64,000 nt of DNA from Candidatus Saccharimonadales bacterium (GCA_050730855.1 JBOHNU010000002.1:23820-87819); one strand, 5' to 3'; shown: positions 1-51,909, counted from the stretch's first letter. Notes: generated by a model from the sequence alone, not told the origin. Program-made: numbers and translations.

Positions 1-554
1 CAATGGCAGAAATCATAGGGAACGCCCGGCGAGAGCGCAAGATACTGGTCTTCGGCTCGGCTAAGATCAAGCCTCTCGCCATTTAAAAAAGCACCGCCAA
101 GCTCTTTATCGGCATAGAAAAGTTCGTCTCTGAAAGGGTTGTATACAACTGAAAGCTGAGGTTCTCCATCTTTAAAAAGCGCAATGGCAACACAGCTTGT
201 TCGTTCATGATCTAATAGCGAATCGTCAATGTATTCACCCGTACCATCAACGGGATCGATGATCCATTCTTCTTCGCTACCCGCTACTTTATGAGAAGAC
301 TCTTCGCCCGTCACCGACGCACGTCCTTCAGATAGCACAGCTACTTTCTGCTCGAAGTCTTTATTGACTGCTATATCAACATCTGTCACGTCGGTTCGAT
401 CTAGCTTTTTGGTTTTGATAAGATTATTACGCCGATTTTTTATGTAGTGGCCTGCGCTGACTGCGTAGGAAAGCGCGAATTGGAGATTTGCGCTAATAGG
501 ATACTCTTCTTTGTTCTCTAGGGAGCCTCTGGGTGGTAGGTCGGGGGTTTTCAT
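1..554 (-). CDS. inositol monophosphatase / FBPase-family phosphatase, N-terminal part (runs off the window start)
   Basis: Absent from the ORF track because it is open at the window edge. My own translation of the minus strand from the ATG at 554-552 gives MKTPDLPPRGSLENKEEYPISANLQFALSYAVSAGHYIKNRRNN...GSEEEWIIDPVDGTGEYIDDSLLDHERTS. WxIDPxDGT is the IMPase-family metal-binding motif. AGGA lies 5 nt upstream of the ATG. Confidence 0.7.
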   Translation of the reverse strand, partial: MKTPDLPPRGSLENKEEYPISANLQFALSYAVSAGHYIKNRRNNLIKTKKLDRTDVTDVDIAVNKDFEQKVAVLSEGRASVTGEESSHKVAGSEEEWIIDPVDGTGEYIDDSLLDHERTSCVAIALFKDGEPQLSVVYNPFRDELFYADKELGGAFLNGERLDLSRAEDQYLALSPGVPYDFCH

Positions 555-702: not shown

Positions 703-1563
703 CTACGGGTGCCTTGGGGTGGTGACCAAGAAAATACCCCGATGGTTAGTACTAATAATGTAGGGCGTTCCGTAGCGACGCTCGTAGTCGTCAAGCTGCC
801 AGGCAAAGAACGCCAGTGTTTTGTCAATGGCCGACCAGTCCTGAGTAAATCGAACATGCTCTTCGTTAGAGCGGCCATCAATTCTACGCATGGCGTTACG
901 GTTTACTAAGTTTTTTACGTGCGGATCGGTTGTAACAAGCTCATCTGGCAGTAACACGGAGTAACGGGCGACAGGGCAGCCCATACTGTTTTTGTTTTGC
1001 ATATTCGACCTAAGGCCACGGATCGCGGCTCGGCTAAGACTGGCTGTTGCGTATGTTAAATTTTCAGAAGGCTCAAGCTGCTCACTGTAATTAAATAATG
1101 GGTCGTCCGCCTTTAGGGCGTCTACACTTTTTAGTCTTTCGACTATTTTATTTCCGGTGTAGTGACCTAAGTGGCTGCCTAATGTGCCGTAAGTCCCGTT
1201 CGGAGCAAGTGCCATCATATGAGATAACCTGCTAAACCAACCAGTGCCGATTATATTCGCCCAGTCTTGTAGCGTAAAATTATTTCTTTGTTCCGGGGTT
1301 AACTTGCCTTGTTCAATAAAGAAATCAGTAATTTCACTGGCAAGTAAGGCTGCGAAATGCCAAGGGAAATCCAGGTCAGCAAAACCATGTTCGAAAGTTC
1401 GTCCTCTCGCTCGATCTAGGTCGGTATTTGTAACTCCATAGTGTTTACGAAAGGTCTCTCCCCTTTCAGGAAGCGCTGATGTAAATTGTTGCATCACGTG
1501 CATCATACAAGCACCAGCAGGATTTTCCTCTACTGTTTTGTAGTTGGCACTTTCGGGTTGCAT
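703..1563 (-). CDS. hypothetical protein, 286 aa, no family recognised
   Basis: Longest ORF in a visibly AT-rich stretch. No TM segments. The only motif noticed is a possible HEPN-like Rx4H (RSNEEH) near the C-terminus. Confidence 0.5.
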   Translation of the reverse strand: MQPESANYKTVEENPAGACMMHVMQQFTSALPERGETFRKHYGVTNTDLDRARGRTFEHGFADLDFPWHFAALLASEITDFFIEQGKLTPEQRNNFTLQDWANIIGTGWFSRLSHMMALAPNGTYGTLGSHLGHYTGNKIVERLKSVDALKADDPLFNYSEQLEPSENLTYATASLSRAAIRGLRSNMQNKNSMGCPVARYSVLLPDELVTTDPHVKNLVNRNAMRRIDGRSNEEHVRFTQDWSAIDKTLAFFAWQLDDYERRYGTPYIISTNHRGIFLVTTPRHP

Positions 1564-1582
1564 GTAAATATCAATCTTTCGT

Positions 1583-1738
1583 CTAGCTTAGTGGGGGGTG
1601 TTTCTCAATTTCTGCTAGCAACAGATCATTGACATCTGTGTAAAGAGCAAAGCCAGAAGTGCGCTGGAACTCCTGACGAGTACTGATTTCGTGGTTACTG
1701 CTCACATGAGTCCTAAAATTAGAAAGGTATTGTAACAT
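1583..1738 (-). CDS. possible small ORF (51 codons from internal Met of track ORF 1583..1804)
   Basis: ATG at 1738-1736 gives MLQYLSNFRTHVSSNHEISTRQEFQRTSGFALYTDVNDLLLAEIEKHPPLS and ends 20 nt before the start of 703..1563. No clear SD. The longer track ORF reads through hairpin element A and is unlikely to be real. Confidence 0.2.
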   Translation of the reverse strand: MLQYLSNFRTHVSSNHEISTRQEFQRTSGFALYTDVNDLLLAEIEKHPPLS

Positions 1739-1759
1739 AAAATATATAAAAAACCACAC

Positions 1760-1835
1760 TGCCTGACCCACCCTCACTTTTTCCGGCACCTCGGCGACCC
1801 GCACGTGTCCTGAAAAAGTGAGGGTGGGTCAGGCA
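1760..1835 (+). repeat. family-1 hairpin element, copy A (minimal form without apical hairpin)
   Basis: Perfect 22-bp inverted repeat: gcctgacccaccctcacttttt (1761-1782) against aaaaagtgagggtgggtcaggc (1813-1834). It encloses the conserved blocks GGCACCTCGG (1785-1794) and GACCCGCACGTGTCC (1796-1810). Confidence 0.85.
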
Positions 1836-4089: not shown

Positions 4090-4126
4090 GCACCCCCGTA
4101 GCCTTGGCCGCCAAGGCTACGGGTGC
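4090..4126. other. strong stem-loop in the pheS / glycosidase divergent intergenic region
   Basis: gcacccccgtagccttgg ccg ccaaggctacgggtgc forms a stem of about 16 bp with a 2-nt bulge and a 3-nt loop. Neither flanking gene ends here, so it is not positioned as a terminator. Confidence 0.6.
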
Positions 4127-5738: not shown

Positions 5739-6181
5739 GTCAACAGACATTGTTCGACAAAATAGTGGGCGGCGAAATCCCTAGCTGTAAAGTCTGGGAG
5801 GATGACAAGTATCTGGCGTTTCTGACGCCGTGGCCCAACACGCCCGGCTTCACCGTGGTGGTGCCTAAGCAAAACCCCGGAGACAACTACCTGGATGTTT
5901 CCGACGACGCTTACACCGGCCTGCTTCTGGCCGCCAAAAAGGTCGCGGCCGTATTGCGCAAGGCTTTCGGGGTGCAGCGTATAGGCCTGGTAATAGAGGG
6001 TCAAGCAGTGCCGCACCTCCACGTAAAGCTAATTCCCATGCATGGCGAGGGCGGCAAGCACAAACATGCGCCGCAGTTTACGCGCGAATACCAAGGCTAT
6101 CTAACCACCACCGAAGGTCCCAAAATGAGCGACGAAGAACTCCAAAAGATTCAGAAAAAAATTCAACAGGCCGCGGCATGA
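5735..6181 (+). CDS. HIT-family nucleotide hydrolase/transferase
   Basis: LFDKIVGGEIP N-terminus and the histidine triad VPHLHVKLIP. ATGA overlap with the upstream gene. Confidence 0.85.
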   Translation: MSQQTLFDKIVGGEIPSCKVWEDDKYLAFLTPWPNTPGFTVVVPKQNPGDNYLDVSDDAYTGLLLAAKKVAAVLRKAFGVQRIGLVIEGQAVPHLHVKLIPMHGEGGKHKHAPQFTREYQGYLTTTEGPKMSDEELQKIQKKIQQAAA

Positions 6182-6885
6182 AGAAAAAACCAATAATCTA
6201 CGCCTTCATCGACAGCCAAAACCTCAACTTGGCTATCCGCGACATGGGGTGGAAGCTGGATTTTGCCCGTTTTCGCGTGTATCTGCGCGAGAAATTGCAG
6301 GTAGAAAAAGCCTACCTTTTCCTTGGATACATCCCGGAGAATAAAGATATGTATTCCTTTTTGAGAAAGGCGGGTTTTGATTGCATTTTTCGTCCGACTT
6401 TGGCCTACAAAGACGGCACTACCAAAGGCAATTGTGATGCCGAGCTGGTTTTGCAGGCGATGATAGATTTTAATGTCTACGATCAGGCAGTGGTAGTAAC
6501 CGGCGATGGCGATTTTTACTGCCTGGCAAATCACCTGATTAAAAACAATAAATTAAAGACCCTGCTTGTGCCCAATCGCCATAAGTACTCGGCTTTGCTT
6601 AAATTAAAATTGTTCCGACCTTTTACGCGCGATATGAATGACCTACGTAAGAAATTGGAATATTTGAGCCCAAAAAAGAAGAACCCCCTCAAGGACGAAA
6701 CTTTGAAGGGGACATCTTCCGCTGGTGATACTAAGAGAATTTTAGCAAATGAACGACCACGAGTCAAGATAGGCAACAAAAAGACCAGGAGCAGCGGTCG
6801 GATCACATCCTTAGGTCAGCCTGGTCATGGTGATATAAAAAGTACAACAAAACGTTCGCCCAAGATTAAGAGGCCTAAATTATGA
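6178..6885 (+). CDS. NYN-domain (LabA-like) putative ribonuclease with Lys/Arg-rich C-terminal tail
   Basis: IDSQNL...NCDAELVLQAM...VVVTGDGDF is the NYN/LabA signature. The last 80 or so residues are highly basic. The gene is clearly AT-rich relative to its neighbours. Confidence 0.7.
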   Translation: MKKKPIIYAFIDSQNLNLAIRDMGWKLDFARFRVYLREKLQVEKAYLFLGYIPENKDMYSFLRKAGFDCIFRPTLAYKDGTTKGNCDAELVLQAMIDFNVYDQAVVVTGDGDFYCLANHLIKNNKLKTLLVPNRHKYSALLKLKLFRPFTRDMNDLRKKLEYLSPKKKNPLKDETLKGTSSAGDTKRILANERPRVKIGNKKTRSSGRITSLGQPGHGDIKSTTKRSPKIKRPKL

Positions 6886-25803: not shown

Positions 25804-27048
25804 ATGACGCGCTTTTTACGCAATGCTTTGGGGGCAGAGGAACCGACGTTTAGTCAAAGTATCCGGCAGCTCGAGCGTGCAGCGGGCGCGCCCAGCGCCG
25901 ACATCCGCCTGACAAGCGAGCTGGTGTGCCAGGTTAAAGCTAAGGTTGCCGAGCTGGGGCTTGACCCCAACGACACCAGCGGCCAGGAGCTATATGAAGT
26001 TTTGCGTCAGCGCCTGGTACACGACGAGGCGCTAGTGCGCTACCGGCTGGGAGTGCCGGTGGATGCGCCGCCGCCGCTGGTGGCAGACCGCGTGCGCCAC
26101 TTTCTGGGAAAATTGGATGCGCCTGCGGCCTGCTTTGCGCTAAAAAACAGTGTCGCCAAAAAAATGCTGCGCGCCAAGCCACCCAAAACGGCCATGAAGC
26201 GGCTTGGGTACCGCTCGGCCGACTCAATGCTCAAGCACGAGCCGGCGGCGCAGCTGTACGCCGCCGCGCTTATTTACGAATCTCCGTCTTGGCACAAGTC
26301 GTTTTTGGCTCAGTATGTAAAGCTCTCGCCTGGCGATTTCGAGCCGAGGCGCATCAGCGTGCTCCATCCCAAATCCACAAAGTGGCAGCAGGCAAGCCGG
26401 GATTTTGCCGGCCAAACCCGGCAAGTTATGGCTGGCTTCCGCGAGCTGGGTGCGGTGGTGCTTTTGCCACCGGCCGACCACCTGGACGGGCTGGCCATCA
26501 CCACGCTGCTTTTGGCAATAGAGGAAATGAACGAAATCCGCGCCTACAGCTCGTTCATAAAGTTGCAGCAGGTGAAGCCGGCGTTTGGCCGCATTGTACA
26601 GCAGTCGTCGCGGGGCGAGCTGCTTACTTCGGCAACGCTCGCCGGCCGGCCCGTGCCGTGGCGCATGGTGCAGCGCTACTACGCCACATTTAAGGAAGCG
26701 TACCATCCGGAGCTGTTTGAGCCGCATGTGCAACCGGAAGATTTGTCGTGGCATAAAGCAGATGAGGCGTTGGTGCGGCTGGAGCCGTCGCTGCGCTTTT
26801 GGCAAGGCACCGCCATGCTGGCGCTGATGGATCAGGACGAGCCGGTGTCGCTCAATATCTTAGACGTAGCCATAAGCCAGGCAAACCACTTGGCGTTTGG
26901 GCACCGCGTGGTGCATTTTTTCCGCGCTAATCTGTGGCATGAGTTGATGTCTCGCTATCTGCACCAGGAAAATCTCGAGACGGCCGTTAGCCAGCAACTC
27001 TCCGGCGATCTACTCGATAACCAACCAAAACAGGAGGTACCGGCATGA
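25804..27048 (+). CDS. hypothetical protein, 414 aa
   Basis: Long GC-rich ORF with no TM segments and no motif I recognise. Its stop overlaps the start of the LOG-family gene (ATGA). Confidence 0.55.
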   Translation: MTRFLRNALGAEEPTFSQSIRQLERAAGAPSADIRLTSELVCQVKAKVAELGLDPNDTSGQELYEVLRQRLVHDEALVRYRLGVPVDAPPPLVADRVRHFLGKLDAPAACFALKNSVAKKMLRAKPPKTAMKRLGYRSADSMLKHEPAAQLYAAALIYESPSWHKSFLAQYVKLSPGDFEPRRISVLHPKSTKWQQASRDFAGQTRQVMAGFRELGAVVLLPPADHLDGLAITTLLLAIEEMNEIRAYSSFIKLQQVKPAFGRIVQQSSRGELLTSATLAGRPVPWRMVQRYYATFKEAYHPELFEPHVQPEDLSWHKADEALVRLEPSLRFWQGTAMLALMDQDEPVSLNILDVAISQANHLAFGHRVVHFFRANLWHELMSRYLHQENLETAVSQQLSGDLLDNQPKQEVPA

Positions 27049-27761: not shown

Positions 27762-27982
27762 AACAGAGAGAACAAAACGAGCTGGCCTTTAGTAAAATTT
27801 TGATCCTGCTGCTGGCGGCTGTTGGGCTTTTATTTGTTATTTGGTTTGCCTGGGTTCGGCCGGAGGAAGAGTCCGCCAACATTACTTCGTTCGACGACTG
27901 CAAAGCGGCTGGCTATCCGGTTCAGGAAAGTTTCCCCGAAGTTTGCGTGGCGCCGGACGGCCAGCGTTTTACTAATAACTAG
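27758..27982 (+). CDS. small membrane-anchored hypothetical protein (74 aa)
   Basis: One TM helix (ILILLLAAVGLLFVIWFAWV) and a short Cys-containing tail. ATGA overlap with the LOG gene. Confidence 0.4.
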   Translation: MKQREQNELAFSKILILLLAAVGLLFVIWFAWVRPEEESANITSFDDCKAAGYPVQESFPEVCVAPDGQRFTNN

Positions 27983-28097
27983 GAAGCCCCCGACTCTGCA
28001 CTATATTACAGGACACATGCGGGTCATGAAACGGGCTTAAATAGCACATTTCGCGCTTACGGGTGCCTGTTACAAATAGTGCAGGTCGGGGACTTCC
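27982..28097 (-). repeat. family-1 hairpin element, copy F (partly decayed)
   Basis: Imperfect arms of about 30 nt: ggaagcccccgactctgcactatattaca against tgttacaaatagtgcaggtcggggacttcc. On the plus strand the core reads GGACACATGCGGGTC (28011-28025) and ACGGGTGCC (28059-28067), the reverse complement of the family core. Confidence 0.75.
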
Positions 28098-28119
28098 TAT
28101 TGGACGCTTCCTAACCTGT

Positions 28120-40621: not shown

Positions 40622-40732
40622 GCCTGACCCCCCATACACTTTTTCCGGCACCTCGGAAGCGCCGAATGTGCTACACTTTGTAGCGCATTCGGTGACCCGC
40701 ACGTGTCCGGAAAAGTGCATGGGGGGTCAGGC
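40622..40732 (+). repeat. family-1 hairpin element, copy B (full form)
   Basis: Outer arms gcctgaccccccatacactttttccgg and ccggaaaagtgcatggggggtcaggc. Core GGCACCTCGG (40647-40656) and GACCCGCACGTGTCC (40694-40708). Apical 14-bp hairpin at 40662-40692. Starts 3 nt after the dnaE stop. Confidence 0.85.
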
Positions 40733-41748: not shown

Positions 41749-41771
41749 CTTGATTTTTACTATAGCACAAA

Positions 41772-41932
41772 GAACCCATCTCAAACCTCCCCGCCGCTAC
41801 AAAACTATCTGGCGGAACCAGCTGTCAGTTTTGTTCGTCGGCGTAACGATAGTTACGCCTTCTCACAAGAACTAACAACTGGCACTCACCGGATAATTTT
41901 TCGCTATGACGGGGGAGGTTTGAGATGGGTTC
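41772..41932 (-). repeat. family-2 element, copy D (161 nt, 21-nt terminal inverted repeats)
   Basis: gaacccatctcaaacctcccc (41772-41792) pairs perfectly with ggggaggtttgagatgggttc (41912-41932). The 25-nt core at 41866-41890 is the exact reverse complement of 51763-51787. 8-bp apical hairpin at 41840-41859. Confidence 0.85.
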
Positions 41933-41954
41933 GTAGTGCTTTTGCTAAATATCA

Positions 41955-42062
41955 GACCCGCCCCACATCAACTCCCCAGGACACGTGCGGGTCACAAAAT
42001 GTGTTCTTATATAACACATTTTGTGCTTCCGAGGTGCCTAGGGAGTTGATGTGGGGCGGGTC
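41955..42062 (-). repeat. family-1 hairpin element, copy C (full form, inverted orientation)
   Basis: Perfect 22-bp outer stem (41955-41976 against 42041-42062). On the plus strand the core reads GGACACGTGCGGGTC (41979-41993) and CCGAGGTGCC (42029-42038). Perfect 12-bp apical hairpin at 41994-42024. Confidence 0.85.
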
Positions 42063-49162: not shown

Positions 49163-51727
49163 CTACAAGAAGTACTGCTTAACCGCGGCAACGTCGCGCT
49201 GCAGCCAAGCCACGCGGTTCTCGATTTCTTCTATACCCAGTGTGATGCTGCGCTGCAAGGCGGGCAGTTTTTTGAGCGGCTCGAAGAAGGTGCGGTATTC
49301 GTCTAGCAACTGAGCGGTGTTAAAGGCGTTCGCCACGTAGCGCGGGAAGTAGTCGAAGCTGTTGTCGCTTGCGAATGTTTTTTCTATCCAATCCCAATGC
49401 TCGCGCAGCCAATCCCACGCCAGTTGGCGTGTGTCGCGGTTGCGCAGCAGGTACGCCAGCCAGCGGTCGACGTCGTGCTGCCGAACTTTTTTACCATCCT
49501 TTAACCGGCCTAGCAAGGTTTTTGCCTGGGCTGGGTTTTTTGTGGCGGTCAGCGCGTCCATAATATCGAGCTTTAGCGCGGTGTCGGTGGTGTTTTCGTC
49601 CAGATCTAACAGGTAGTCAAATGCGCCGCTGGCTTGCTGGCGGACGGCGGCGCCCAAGATTACGCTGCGCAGTTCGGACGTTACGGCCGCCGAGTCTTTT
49701 TTGTACTCGGCGAATAACTTAAGCGCCTCGGCAACAATTGCCGGATGCTTAGCGTACACGCCAAGGCTGATAATTAGCGCGCGCAGCTTGGTGTCTTCCG
49801 ACGATTCGCCGGGCTTTTCGCGCCAGCCCAGCCGCTTGTGCTGCGCGCCGACAAGCTGCCGCACAAAGGCGCGCATCGGCTCCTCCAGACTAGGGTCGAC
49901 ATCTATAAAGCGACGCAAGTCCGACAGCGTGAGCGCAATTATGTTCCACACCGGCTCTTCGTCTTCTTGCTTGTAGTGGTCGAGCAATTGCAGCGTCGCA
50001 CTGGTGGTTTGCTTGCCGGCGCGGGCAAGCATGGCGCTGTCGTTTAGCAGCGCCAGCCGTTCGGCCGGGTTCAGCCGTTTTTGAGCCGCTTGCTGGGCGA
50101 TTGCCTCGGCGTGCTCCGGGTTTACATAATGCACCAGGTAGTGGCCGGTCGCGCCCTGGTTGAGCCGCACCCAGCGGCTGTCGGGCAGCTCGGTCTGAAA
50201 GTGGTCTGCCTCAAGCAGCGCCGGGACACTCAGCGAATCCGCCAAAAGCGGCACCGGCCAGCGGCGTTCGGGGTCGGCCTTGGCTGGATCCATTAAAAAG
50301 TGAGTTTGCGCGATCGACAGTGACTGGCCATTCTGAGTAACTTCGATAACCGGGTAGCCGCTGCGCTCCAGCCAGGGCGTCATGATGTGGGCCACATCAC
50401 TGCCGTTGCTGAGTGCTTGCCACAAGTCGTCGCCGGTGGTGTTACCGTAGGCGTGTTTATCGAAGTACCTTTTTAGGCCTTTGCGGAACTCCTCTTGGCC
50501 CAGGTGCTGCACCAGCATATTGATCAGCCGGCCGCCCTTGGCGTATACAATGGATGGGTCGAAGATGCTGCCGATTTCGGCCGGATGGCGCACATCGGTT
50601 TTGATCGCCTGGACGCCGGCAATGCTGTCGCGCCGCAGCGCGGCCAATCCATCGGCGGCGATGTAGGTGTTCCAGATGCGCCAGTGCGGATACAGCGCGT
50701 CCTCTGCCACAAAGGCCATGACGTTGGCAAAACTTTCGTTTAGCCACAAGTCGTCCCACCAGCGCATGGTAACCAAATTGCCGAACCACTGGTGCGACAG
50801 TTCGTGCAGGATAACTTCGGCCGTGATTTCTTTGCCGCCTTGGGTCGCGGTGTCCGGGTCTGCCAGAAATACAGCCTCGCGGTAGGTAATGAGTCCCCAG
50901 TTTTCCATGGCGCCCGATGAAAAATCCGGTATGGCCACGTGGTCGCACTTGGGCAGCGGATAAGGAGTGTCGAAGTATTCCTCAAAAAAGTCCAGGCCGC
51001 GGGCGGCCACCTCCAGTGCGAAGTCCAGTGCCTCGGGGCGGTGTGCCTTGGTCGCCCACACTCTAACGTCTACGCCGTTCTTTGATTTCGTCTCCTTGCT
51101 TTGCAAATCGCCAAACACAAACGCCAGCAGGTAGGTCGGCATCCGCGGGGTTGTTTCGAAGAGCGTATGCAGTTTATCGCCCTTTGTAGTTTGGGTTTTT
51201 GGGGGCATGTTGCCTATAACCGCCTGGCTGGCGGGCGAGATAAGGCTGAGTGCGAACGTGGCTTTGGCTTCCGGTTCGTCGATACAAGGAAAGGCCTGGC
51301 GGGCAAAATGGCTTTCGAACTGCGTGGAGACTACCCGCTTTTGCTCGCCGCCGGCGGTGTAGTCCGAGTAATACGCACCCTGCATGCCGGCGCTGATTTT
51401 GCTGGCAAACTCCATTTCTACGGTGTAGCTCCCGGGGTACAGCATTTGCGCGGTGTGCAGGCGCAGCTCGTGCAGCGTGCGGTGGTGGTTAATGCGCGAA
51501 ACGGTTATCTCTTGGTCGCCCTTTTTGTCGTGGCGGGTAATTTTGGCGCCCAGCACCTTAACGCCGTTCTGGTGGAAGGTTAGCCGCTGCGACGGCCTCC
51601 CGGTCTTTTGGCCGGAAACTACAACCGTTCCGGTGATCTCGAGGGTTTCGGGGTTTGGCTCCAGGGATAGCTCGTAATGCTTGGGCGCAAAGCTGGCAAA
51701 AAGTCGGCGTACACGTTTAGAACCCAC
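49163..51727 (-). CDS. pepN: aminopeptidase N (M1 family)
   Basis: GAMENWG exopeptidase motif and HELSHQWFGNLVTMRWWDDLWLNESFA (HExxH-18-E). The GTG start at 51727-51725 and its GGAG lie inside the terminal repeat of element E. Confidence 0.9.
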   Translation of the reverse strand: MGSKRVRRLFASFAPKHYELSLEPNPETLEITGTVVVSGQKTGRPSQRLTFHQNGVKVLGAKITRHDKKGDQEITVSRINHHRTLHELRLHTAQMLYPGSYTVEMEFASKISAGMQGAYYSDYTAGGEQKRVVSTQFESHFARQAFPCIDEPEAKATFALSLISPASQAVIGNMPPKTQTTKGDKLHTLFETTPRMPTYLLAFVFGDLQSKETKSKNGVDVRVWATKAHRPEALDFALEVAARGLDFFEEYFDTPYPLPKCDHVAIPDFSSGAMENWGLITYREAVFLADPDTATQGGKEITAEVILHELSHQWFGNLVTMRWWDDLWLNESFANVMAFVAEDALYPHWRIWNTYIAADGLAALRRDSIAGVQAIKTDVRHPAEIGSIFDPSIVYAKGGRLINMLVQHLGQEEFRKGLKRYFDKHAYGNTTGDDLWQALSNGSDVAHIMTPWLERSGYPVIEVTQNGQSLSIAQTHFLMDPAKADPERRWPVPLLADSLSVPALLEADHFQTELPDSRWVRLNQGATGHYLVHYVNPEHAEAIAQQAAQKRLNPAERLALLNDSAMLARAGKQTTSATLQLLDHYKQEDEEPVWNIIALTLSDLRRFIDVDPSLEEPMRAFVRQLVGAQHKRLGWREKPGESSEDTKLRALIISLGVYAKHPAIVAEALKLFAEYKKDSAAVTSELRSVILGAAVRQQASGAFDYLLDLDENTTDTALKLDIMDALTATKNPAQAKTLLGRLKDGKKVRQHDVDRWLAYLLRNRDTRQLAWDWLREHWDWIEKTFASDNSFDYFPRYVANAFNTAQLLDEYRTFFEPLKKLPALQRSITLGIEEIENRVAWLQRDVAAVKQYFL

Positions 51728-51882
51728 TTCAAATCTCCACTCTGTTAAGAGAAGGCCATGCAGGTGAGTGCCAGTTGTTAGTTCTTGGGAGGAAGTGTAT
51801 CTGTAGATACACTGAAGAGCAAAACTGGCAACTGGTGCAGCCAGAATGGTCTGAGGCTGGAGGGGAGGTTTGAGGTGGGTTC
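51720..51882 (+). repeat. family-2 element, copy E (163 nt)
   Basis: Terminal repeats gaacccacttcaaatctccac and gggaggtttgaggtgggttc. 25-nt core ggtgagtgccagttgttagttcttg at 51763-51787. 8-bp apical hairpin agtgtatc/gatacact at 51794-51813. Confidence 0.85.
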
Positions 51883-51909
51883 TTACTCATCTGACAATTC
51901 TACACGTTG

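Follow-up and report, generated by a model that had tools for sequence, protein, structure and literature searches.

Genomic Organization of the Hairpin Copies

The window, i.e., the whole 64-kb stretch of DNA that was analyzed, belongs to the metagenome-assembled genome of an uncultivated Candidatus Saccharimonadales (TM7) bacterium; the DnaE encoded in the window is 100% identical to a protein of this genome located on a 136-kb contig. It is dense with housekeeping genes, many of which overlap, and the spacers are mostly shorter than 100 nt. Four copies of a long hairpin, designated Family 1, are present in this window; they are 76–120 nt in length, contain no credible ORF, and are named A, B, C, and F. 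Copy B (40622–40732, plus strand) follows the stop codon of dnaE by 2 nt; the next gene, which is convergent and encodes a CAP-domain protein, has its stop codon 8 nt beyond the element. A methylase gene of the spoU type has its stop codon 11 nt upstream of copy C (41955–42062, minus strand), and a 165-nt inverted-repeat element, unrelated to the family, is 5 nt away from this copy. Relative to their upstream genes, B and C are both in the sense orientation. Copy A (1760–1835, plus strand) is present between a vanY-like gene (stop codon at 1893, 57 nt away) and the start of an uncharacterized gene, antisense to both. Copy F (27980–28099, minus strand) starts at the stop codon (TAG) of a small ORF of 74 aa, leaves ∼33 nt to the probable start of uvrB, and, like A, is antisense to both its neighbors. 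The cumulative GC skew was found to climb across the whole window, indicating a single replichore, with two copies on each strand. These positions and strands are in agreement with an earlier note on this DNA, made from the sequence alone, except that copy F proved to be longer by 2 bp at each end. The context described in that note, namely, hairpins close to stop codons in mixed orientation, devoid of a T-tract and set in a compact genome, was likewise borne out. On the core strand, no run of T was observed after any of the copies. A terminator scan of the region from 27 to 45 kb listed no copy of the family, and canonical terminator-like sites were not commoner than in shuffled sequences. 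In the Logan contigs L001 and L069 of SRR27067781, contig ends fall inside copy B (at 40655), copy A (at ∼1765), and the second copy of the 165-nt element (at 51745), and copies C and F are read through.

The 165-nt element close to copy C is one of two copies of an unrelated repeat of ∼165 nt (Family 2), found at 41770–41933 and 51719–51883. Its terminal inverted repeats, AGAACCCAYCTCAAACCTCCCC ... GGGGAGGTTTGAGRTGGGTTCT, are separated by ∼118 nt, and a similar inverted-repeat pair was seen in a relative with 76% DnaE identity (L071:15326–15487). A transposase shared between the two families was considered and rejected, as the arms of Family 1 resembled the terminal repeats of Family 2 no better than shuffled sequences did. 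Elsewhere in the window, a perfect 14-bp palindrome with a 1-nt loop, CCCGTAGCCTTGGC / GCCAAGGCTACGGG, lies in the spacer of two divergent genes (4095–4123) and is also present in a Logan contig. A gene for an NYN-domain (PIN-like RNase) protein, as labeled by Pfam, is located inside the pheS–pheT operon (6178–6885, plus strand). A 414-aa ORF (25804–27048, plus strand) showed no Pfam, NCBIfam, or PHROG match, and its single-sequence structure model (pLDDT 36) was unusable.

Protein-family searches and the Pfam annotation of corresponding Logan contigs revealed no transposase, integrase, recombinase, reverse transcriptase, or HUH/Y1 gene in the 64-kb window. The uncharacterized gene beside copy A (703–1804, minus strand) lies in a stretch of lower G+C content (46%) and codes for a 286-aa protein. 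This protein belongs to no Pfam, NCBIfam, or PHROG family and has 143 homologous clusters among 1.84 billion representatives. Its AlphaFold model, although of very high confidence (pLDDT 94.8), had no fold neighbor in PDB or BFVD. A weak match to the MobL relaxase was obtained for one of 64 members of the protein family, and for none of ten long members when these were rescanned singly. The gene has the appearance of being split by a frameshift, the N-terminal GFxLxTDV motif of the family being located in another frame, in the ORF 1583–1804. The 286-aa protein was rejected as a candidate enzyme because the family, the fold, and the MobL rescans provided no evidence of a nuclease.

Architecture of the Family 1 Elements

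Read on the core strand, the elements follow the order outer stem, GGCAC, C, TCGG, an apical part, GACCCGCAYGTG, a bulged T, CC, and the outer stem again. The copies have in common an asymmetric core, GGCACC(TCGG)...GACCCGCAYGTGTCC, which folds into a GGCAC/GTG-T-CC helix with the bulged T, an internal loop, and a CGG/CCG helix. In copy B, which represents the full form, the 5′ arm of the outer stem (40622–40646) is followed by the 5′ half of the core, GGCACCTCGG (40647–40656), and by the apical hairpin P3 (40660–40694), which consists of 16 bp, including two G-T pairs, closed by a CTT loop. The 3′ half of the core, GACCCGCACGTGTCC, with the bulged T (40694–40708) and the 3′ arm of the outer stem (40709–40732) complete the element; all these parts are read on the plus strand, and the core halves pair as GGCAC:GTG(T)CC and CGG:CCG. 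Copy C is also of the full form, with its 3′ core at 41979–41993 and its 5′ core at 42029–42038 on the minus strand. Copy A is a short form, the core of which (1785–1810, plus strand) reads GGCACCTCGG-C-GACCCGCACGTGTCC; a single C is thus present in A where copies B, C, and F contain AAG and then the apical hairpin around AATGTG...CACATT. The 5′ core decamer is exact in copies A, B, and C. Copy F is the most degenerate, with mismatches in both stems and a core, as read from the sequence, of GGCACC-CGT and GACCCGCATGTGTCC that harbors three changes.

The outer stems are paired almost without exception. All 24 of 24 positions in copy A and 23 of 23 in copy B form Watson–Crick pairs. The stem of copy C contains 23 Watson–Crick pairs and one G-T pair, made up of a perfect 22-bp stem and two further pairs, of which one is the T-G wobble (24 in total). 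Copy F showed 27 Watson–Crick and two G-T pairs interrupted by several mismatches. From these comparisons, copy A looks like a B-type copy without the apical hairpin, which would have been lost between two TCGG repeats. Copy F looks like a decaying copy, judging from its core changes and mismatches.

Occurrence of the Family Within and Beyond the Window

The 3′ core 15-mer GACCCGCAYGTGTCC is present unchanged in all four copies and, with up to three mismatches allowed, at just one more place in the window, within a coding sequence. Copies B, C, and F were matched by the two-part pattern GGCACC-N11-41-GACCCGCAYGTGTCC, with zero matches expected from 100 shuffles. An inverted-repeat scan of the window placed the family copies among the longest. 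The folding z-scores of the copies ranged from −8.7 to −13.3 as RNA and from −5.8 to −12.4 as DNA; in the same comparison with shuffles, the opposite strand folded with a nearly equally low energy.

A copy outside the window was identified by a pattern scan of JGI metagenomes, in which one of the 28 matches was genuine and 27 were due to chance. It is present at L045:960–1052 (contig JACZCW010218618.1) between genes for a Y-family polymerase and a methyltransferase, in the sense orientation to both, and the TAA of the polymerase gene forms part of its outer stem (14 Watson–Crick pairs and one G-T pair). The polymerase encoded on this contig was nearest to Saccharimonadales proteins, at only 67–68% identity. 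To go by these sequences, at least two Saccharimonadales-like genomes, which are poorly sampled, carry the family. It was also noted, post hoc, that three of the five known copies adjoin replication/repair genes, i.e., the 3′ end of dnaE, the 5′ side of uvrB, and the 3′ end of the Y-family polymerase gene.

As had been proposed in the earlier note, a covariance model was built; its seed consisted of copies B and C and the outside copy only, with A and F left out, and the search was performed with filters off. The model recovered both excluded copies on the predicted strands with significant E values, F with 48.8 bits (E = 7e-9) and A with 39.3 bits (E = 1e-6); the seed copies B and C scored 89.3 and 101.8 bits, respectively. 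No fifth copy was detected in the 64-kb window. As the next match scored only 16.7 bits, the number of copies in the 64 kb is exactly four.

The note had also proposed a check against Rfam. A search of the window with Rfam 15 at gathering thresholds gave no match. A permissive scan yielded only generic hairpin matches, such as mir-BART19 (28.5 bits against a threshold of 100) and RSV_PBS (26.1 against 47), in agreement with the copies belonging to no Rfam family. A likeness to the tRNA 3′ end, suggested through the match to the RSV primer-binding site, was rejected, the match being sub-threshold and the ACCA-like tail not being conserved among the copies. Similarly, parS, dif, Ter, SRP RNA, and the LexA box were rejected on inspection, since the likeness to them did not go beyond the CACGTG hexamer or short strings, and SRP RNA was not called by Rfam. 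A scan of 185,579 GTDB species representatives with the exact-core long-form pattern revealed no true copy; its 37 matches, mostly in high-G+C actinobacteria, all lacked the hairpin and were attributed to chance. Collections of phages, plasmids, and viral contigs contained no match to the core or to the whole element. Six-frame peptides of the copies were compared with 5.8 billion proteins, among which spurious ORFs over other copies might have been annotated, and nothing scored. A full-text literature search for the core string and for repeats of Saccharibacteria returned nothing relevant. The element family appears to be undescribed so far.

Pairing and Covariation of the Stems

The arms of copies A and B are identical at 22 of 24 positions. 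Two substituted pairs (A-T to C-G and C-G to A-T) and one inserted pair make up the differences, and each is mirrored on the opposite arm. The flanks of A and B, as well as the two loci, are unrelated. Since the arms are common to A and B and the flanks are unrelated, the whole hairpin is, for this subfamily, the unit that moved. For all other pairs of copies, the outer arms aligned no better than composition-matched shuffles. Searches of the window and of viral contigs matched the arms nowhere else, and the sequences gave no support to a derivation of the arms from the flanks or from the spacer of an empty site.

The inner module (from GGCAC to GTGTCC) showed 75–92% identity between copies, the closest pair being copy C and the outside copy (92%). 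The apical hairpins of B, C, F, and the outside copy are homologous around AATGTG/CACATT. In this hairpin, changes on both sides were observed in three of 13 pairs, among four sequences only, and 95% of the cells were paired. The covariation score was 0.254 as compared to 0.138 ± 0.032 and was matched by 2 of 500 shuffles, and the signal collapsed in slid controls. The two core helices are invariant among the copies and give no covariation signal. The compensated stem divergence claimed in the earlier note was hence upheld in part: it holds for the mirrored changes between the outer stems of A and B and for the apical hairpin, but homology of the arms of C, F, and the outside copy to those of A and B, or to each other, could not be demonstrated. 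The same note had taken G-T oppositions as a weak indication of the folding strand. The core strand carries 11 G-T against three A/C oppositions, cases that are not independent of one another, and this excess is a weak hint that the core strand is the one that folds.

Absence of the Elements From Orthologous Sites

The comparison of filled and empty sites that the note had put forward was carried out with four relatives (L067 and L070–L072), fetched by DnaE (identities of 85, 85, 78, and 76%) and amounting to ∼86 kb in all. The gene order gatCAB ... dnaE–CAP–spoU is retained in all four. At the site of copy B, the dnaE and CAP genes of the relatives overlap or are 2–12 nt apart. At the site of copy C, the spacer between the CAP and spoU genes measures 24–49 nt in the relatives as against 289 nt in the window, where it accommodates both copy C and the unrelated 165-nt inverted-repeat element. 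The sites of B and C are thus empty in all four relatives, and the elements are hence lineage-specific insertions and not conserved features of these gene ends.

In L070–L072, the covariance model detected nothing below an E value of 1, and a single borderline match was obtained in L067 (18 bits, E = 0.09). An inverted-repeat scan of the ∼86 kb from the relatives revealed no hairpin of the type and length of Family 1 and only a few shorter pairs. Between the spoU gene and a beta-lactamase-like gene of L067, a relative with 85% DnaE identity, a 100-nt hairpin is located (L067:15293–15385). It has GCACCTC and the apical stem TGTGCTA...AGCACA in common with Family 1, and its 3′ core is different. 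From these short matches, it is possibly an old relative of Family 1 that has diverged or decayed.

Discussion

Family 1 occurs in multiple copies and in both orientations, is inserted in a lineage-specific manner, is found in a different context in another genome, includes one degenerate copy, and shares a spacer with a second family of elements. On these grounds, a mobile nature is proposed, and the unrelated inverted-repeat element 5 nt from copy C indicates that this genome tolerates such insertions. Overall, a non-autonomous mobile element accounts for these features far better than an operator or a conserved RNA of the host does, and a small parasitic mobile element is most likely when set against a conserved regulatory RNA. 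The specific reading that we favor, to which we assign somewhat better than an even chance, is that of a non-autonomous mobile hairpin recognized by its shape and its core, nearest in logic to REPINs and attC sites and a member of neither. No direct repeats were found at any of the five copies when the flanks were read directly; the exact ends of the element and the lack of a target duplication would have to be taken with the reserve due to five copies and to relatives with DnaE identities of 76–85% only. Three further points speak against the mobile reading. No transposase, recombinase, or HUH/Y1 gene was seen in the 64-kb window, termini that differ between subfamilies are the opposite of the inverted repeats bound by classic transposases, and only five copies are known.

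Several families of mobile or regulatory hairpins resemble Family 1 in some respects. REPs are hairpins that are mobilized by RAYT (Y1/HUH) transposases, mainly in Proteobacteria, and a REPIN consists of two inverted REPs. Similar to these, Family 1 is a short, non-coding, intergenic hairpin unit without target duplication that is found in both orientations and keeps its pairing as the sequence drifts, and the presumed enzyme would be encoded elsewhere, for REPs by a single-copy gene that REPs usually flank. However, the conserved GTAG is missing (the string is seen in copy B alone, within the apical stem), neither arm forms a palindrome by itself, the element is not a pair of short inverted palindromes, and Family 1 conserves an asymmetric inner core with arms that differ completely between subfamilies, in a CPR host. 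No RAYT or IS200/IS605-type gene was found in the 64-kb window. The earlier note had named a REP/MITE-like element moved in trans as one of three options. This option is supported as regards movement by the empty sites of B and C, the outside copy in another gene context, and the mixed orientation, but not as regards a REP or MITE in the strict sense, as there is no GTAG, the termini differ between subfamilies, and a target duplication is absent. The IS200/IS605-derived PATE, with dissimilar subterminal hairpins at the left and right ends and a set target tetranucleotide 5′ of the insertion, differ from Family 1, which is a single hairpin with no fixed 5′ tetranucleotide (the left flanks are ACAC, AGCG, TGTC, CCAA, and CGAA).

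Long-hairpin MITEs such as Correia/NEMIS in Neisseria, ERIC/IRU in enterobacteria, and RUP and BOX in pneumococci are, like Family 1, ∼75–150 nt long, multi-copy, and intergenic; they differ in insertion between relatives and can be co-transcribed, folding into RNase III-type hairpins. In contrast to these, the terminal inverted repeats of Family 1 are not conserved across copies (only A and B, at 22 of 24), there is no target-site duplication, and the center, which is variable in MITEs, is conserved and asymmetric. The integron integrase IntI reads attC sites by the shape of the folded bottom strand, as RAYTs read REP hairpins. Family 1 would share with attC a structure-based recognition. Features of Family 1 that are analogous to those of attC, and differently sited in the hairpin, are short conserved boxes split by an unpaired spacer, an extrahelical base (here the bulged T), a terminal structure that is variable or reducible (A as compared to B, C, and F), and an apparent, weak strand preference; the location right after stop codons is also similar. 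Unlike in attC, where the boxes are located at the base of the stem, the conserved boxes of Family 1 lie deep inside a long extra stem. The motifs RYYYAAC/GTTRRRY are absent; GCCTGAC/GTCAGGC in A and B are one transition away, and nothing similar is present in C, F, or the outside copy. Moreover, the copies are scattered among housekeeping genes on both strands, with no cassette array or cargo and with no intI or attI in the window. Rho-independent terminators are also stable hairpins placed just past stop codons, as is seen here in a compact genome. The 24–29-bp stems, the missing U-tract, the conserved internal core, the reversed orientation of some copies, and the absence from the gene ends of relatives set Family 1 apart from them. 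Thus, Family 1 fails at least one tested defining feature of each of MITEs, REPs/REPINs, attC sites, and terminators.

Among the alternatives, a structured RNA used by the host was considered an unlikely, though not a negligible, explanation. Such an RNA could be a terminator (factor-independent or factor-assisted), a 3′-end protector, an RNase III site, or a site for an RNA-binding protein at the internal loop, spread by duplication. The folds are very stable, the apical hairpin has undergone compensatory changes, the core strand favors G-T over A/C oppositions, and three of the five copies are sense and just past a stop codon. With canonical terminators no commoner than in shuffles, other 3′-end signals could be needed in this genome. 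However, four relatives that keep the gene order lack the element at the corresponding intergenic positions, two of the five copies are antisense to both neighbors, there is neither a U-tract nor an Rfam match, copy F is visibly decaying, and a plain hairpin terminator would have no use for the asymmetric core, although no part of the element is better conserved. The note had listed a structured ncRNA or RNase III element and a protein-binding site among its options, and both of these lose weight through the absence at orthologous sites and the antisense orientation of two of the five copies. A role as a host RNA may be a secondary effect, since the stem forms on either strand.

Binding of a host protein (regulator, nucleoid protein, or site-specific recombinase) to the DNA as a duplex or cruciform was regarded as improbable. 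The protein would act on the 13-bp apical arms, spaced 13 - 5..9 - 13 like the core sites of tyrosine recombinases, together with the flanking core. Conservation of sequence beyond what pairing demands, in the core and around AATGTG/CACATT, would be in keeping with such a site, as would the occurrence of either orientation and, post hoc, the adjacency of three of the five copies to dnaE, uvrB, and the Y-family polymerase gene. Yet copy A is devoid of the apical inverted repeat, and relatives with the same genes are without the sites. Most copies are found at 3′ ends of genes and not at promoters, a distribution with which a role as an operator is unlikely. Binding to a duplex needs no long perfect stems of unrelated sequence, and the G-T oppositions point to the folding of a single strand. 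By analogy with small ribozymes on mobile repeats, which typically have helices separated by invariant unpaired nucleotides, an outer helix that varies, and an apical helix that can be dispensed with, the element might also be a small RNA of a new type, catalytic or guide-like, that travels on a mobile element, e.g., a self-cleaving ribozyme with an active site in the internal loop, a variable P1, and an optional apical stem. No known family matches it, but only five copies are known and two of them are antisense to local transcription. A spacer or guide role is unsupported, as the outer arms are unmatched elsewhere in the window or in viral contigs, and this explanation was judged to be the least credible, with only a very slight chance.

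The non-autonomous mobile hairpin can be envisaged to operate as follows. The unit of movement would be the whole hairpin, small and non-coding, and an enzyme acting in trans, from a gene at another place in the genome, would recognize the folded single strand, DNA and RNA folding being indistinguishable in these data. The enzyme would read the shape of the stem together with the lopsided sequence of the core, comprising the bulged-T helix, the internal loop, and the CGG/CCG helix. Recognition of shape plus a short sequence is suggested because the core is invariant and contains a bulged base, the apical stem is constrained in its pairing, and the outer stems are constrained only to pair. The element would be copied or moved without target duplication, and its spread would continue only in lineages with a paired stem and an intact core; such selection on stem and core would account for stems that are perfect yet unrelated in sequence and enclose one and the same core. 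Copy F would then be a decaying insertion, and copy A a derivative that is devoid of the apical hairpin. In transcripts of either strand, the 24–29-bp stems would form stable RNA hairpins that could end or stabilize transcripts as a side effect. A difficulty for the mobile reading is that unrelated outer stems stand beside inner modules with 75–92% identity, with no step accounting for both; self-templated correction of the arms, exchange of inner modules, or de novo formation of stems may have been the route to the unrelated outer stems. A bolder proposal, made by analogy and in our estimate rather doubtful, is that the hairpins are substrates of a hitherto unrecognized structure-reading single-strand recombinase or transposase of CPR bacteria, which would act on a bulged asymmetric core within an arbitrary stem, new perfect stems arising or being corrected in copying, in an attC-like logic detached from integrons; the same proposal would alternatively have them represent a new class of self-cleaving ribozymes on a mobile repeat.

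Saccharibacteria and other CPR bacteria possess tiny, tightly packed genomes that are thought to be poor in repeats. The recent entry of hairpins into spacers of 2–50 nt would indicate that selfish DNA is active in such a genome. A conserved lopsided center combined with free perfect stems is the inverse of textbook MITEs and REPs and points to recognition of a folded single strand. The partner enzyme, if found, could serve as a new tool for structure-specific work on DNA or RNA. The hairpins may also break or thin short-read metagenome assemblies, and the Family 1 elements would serve as lineage markers for the tracking of TM7 strains.
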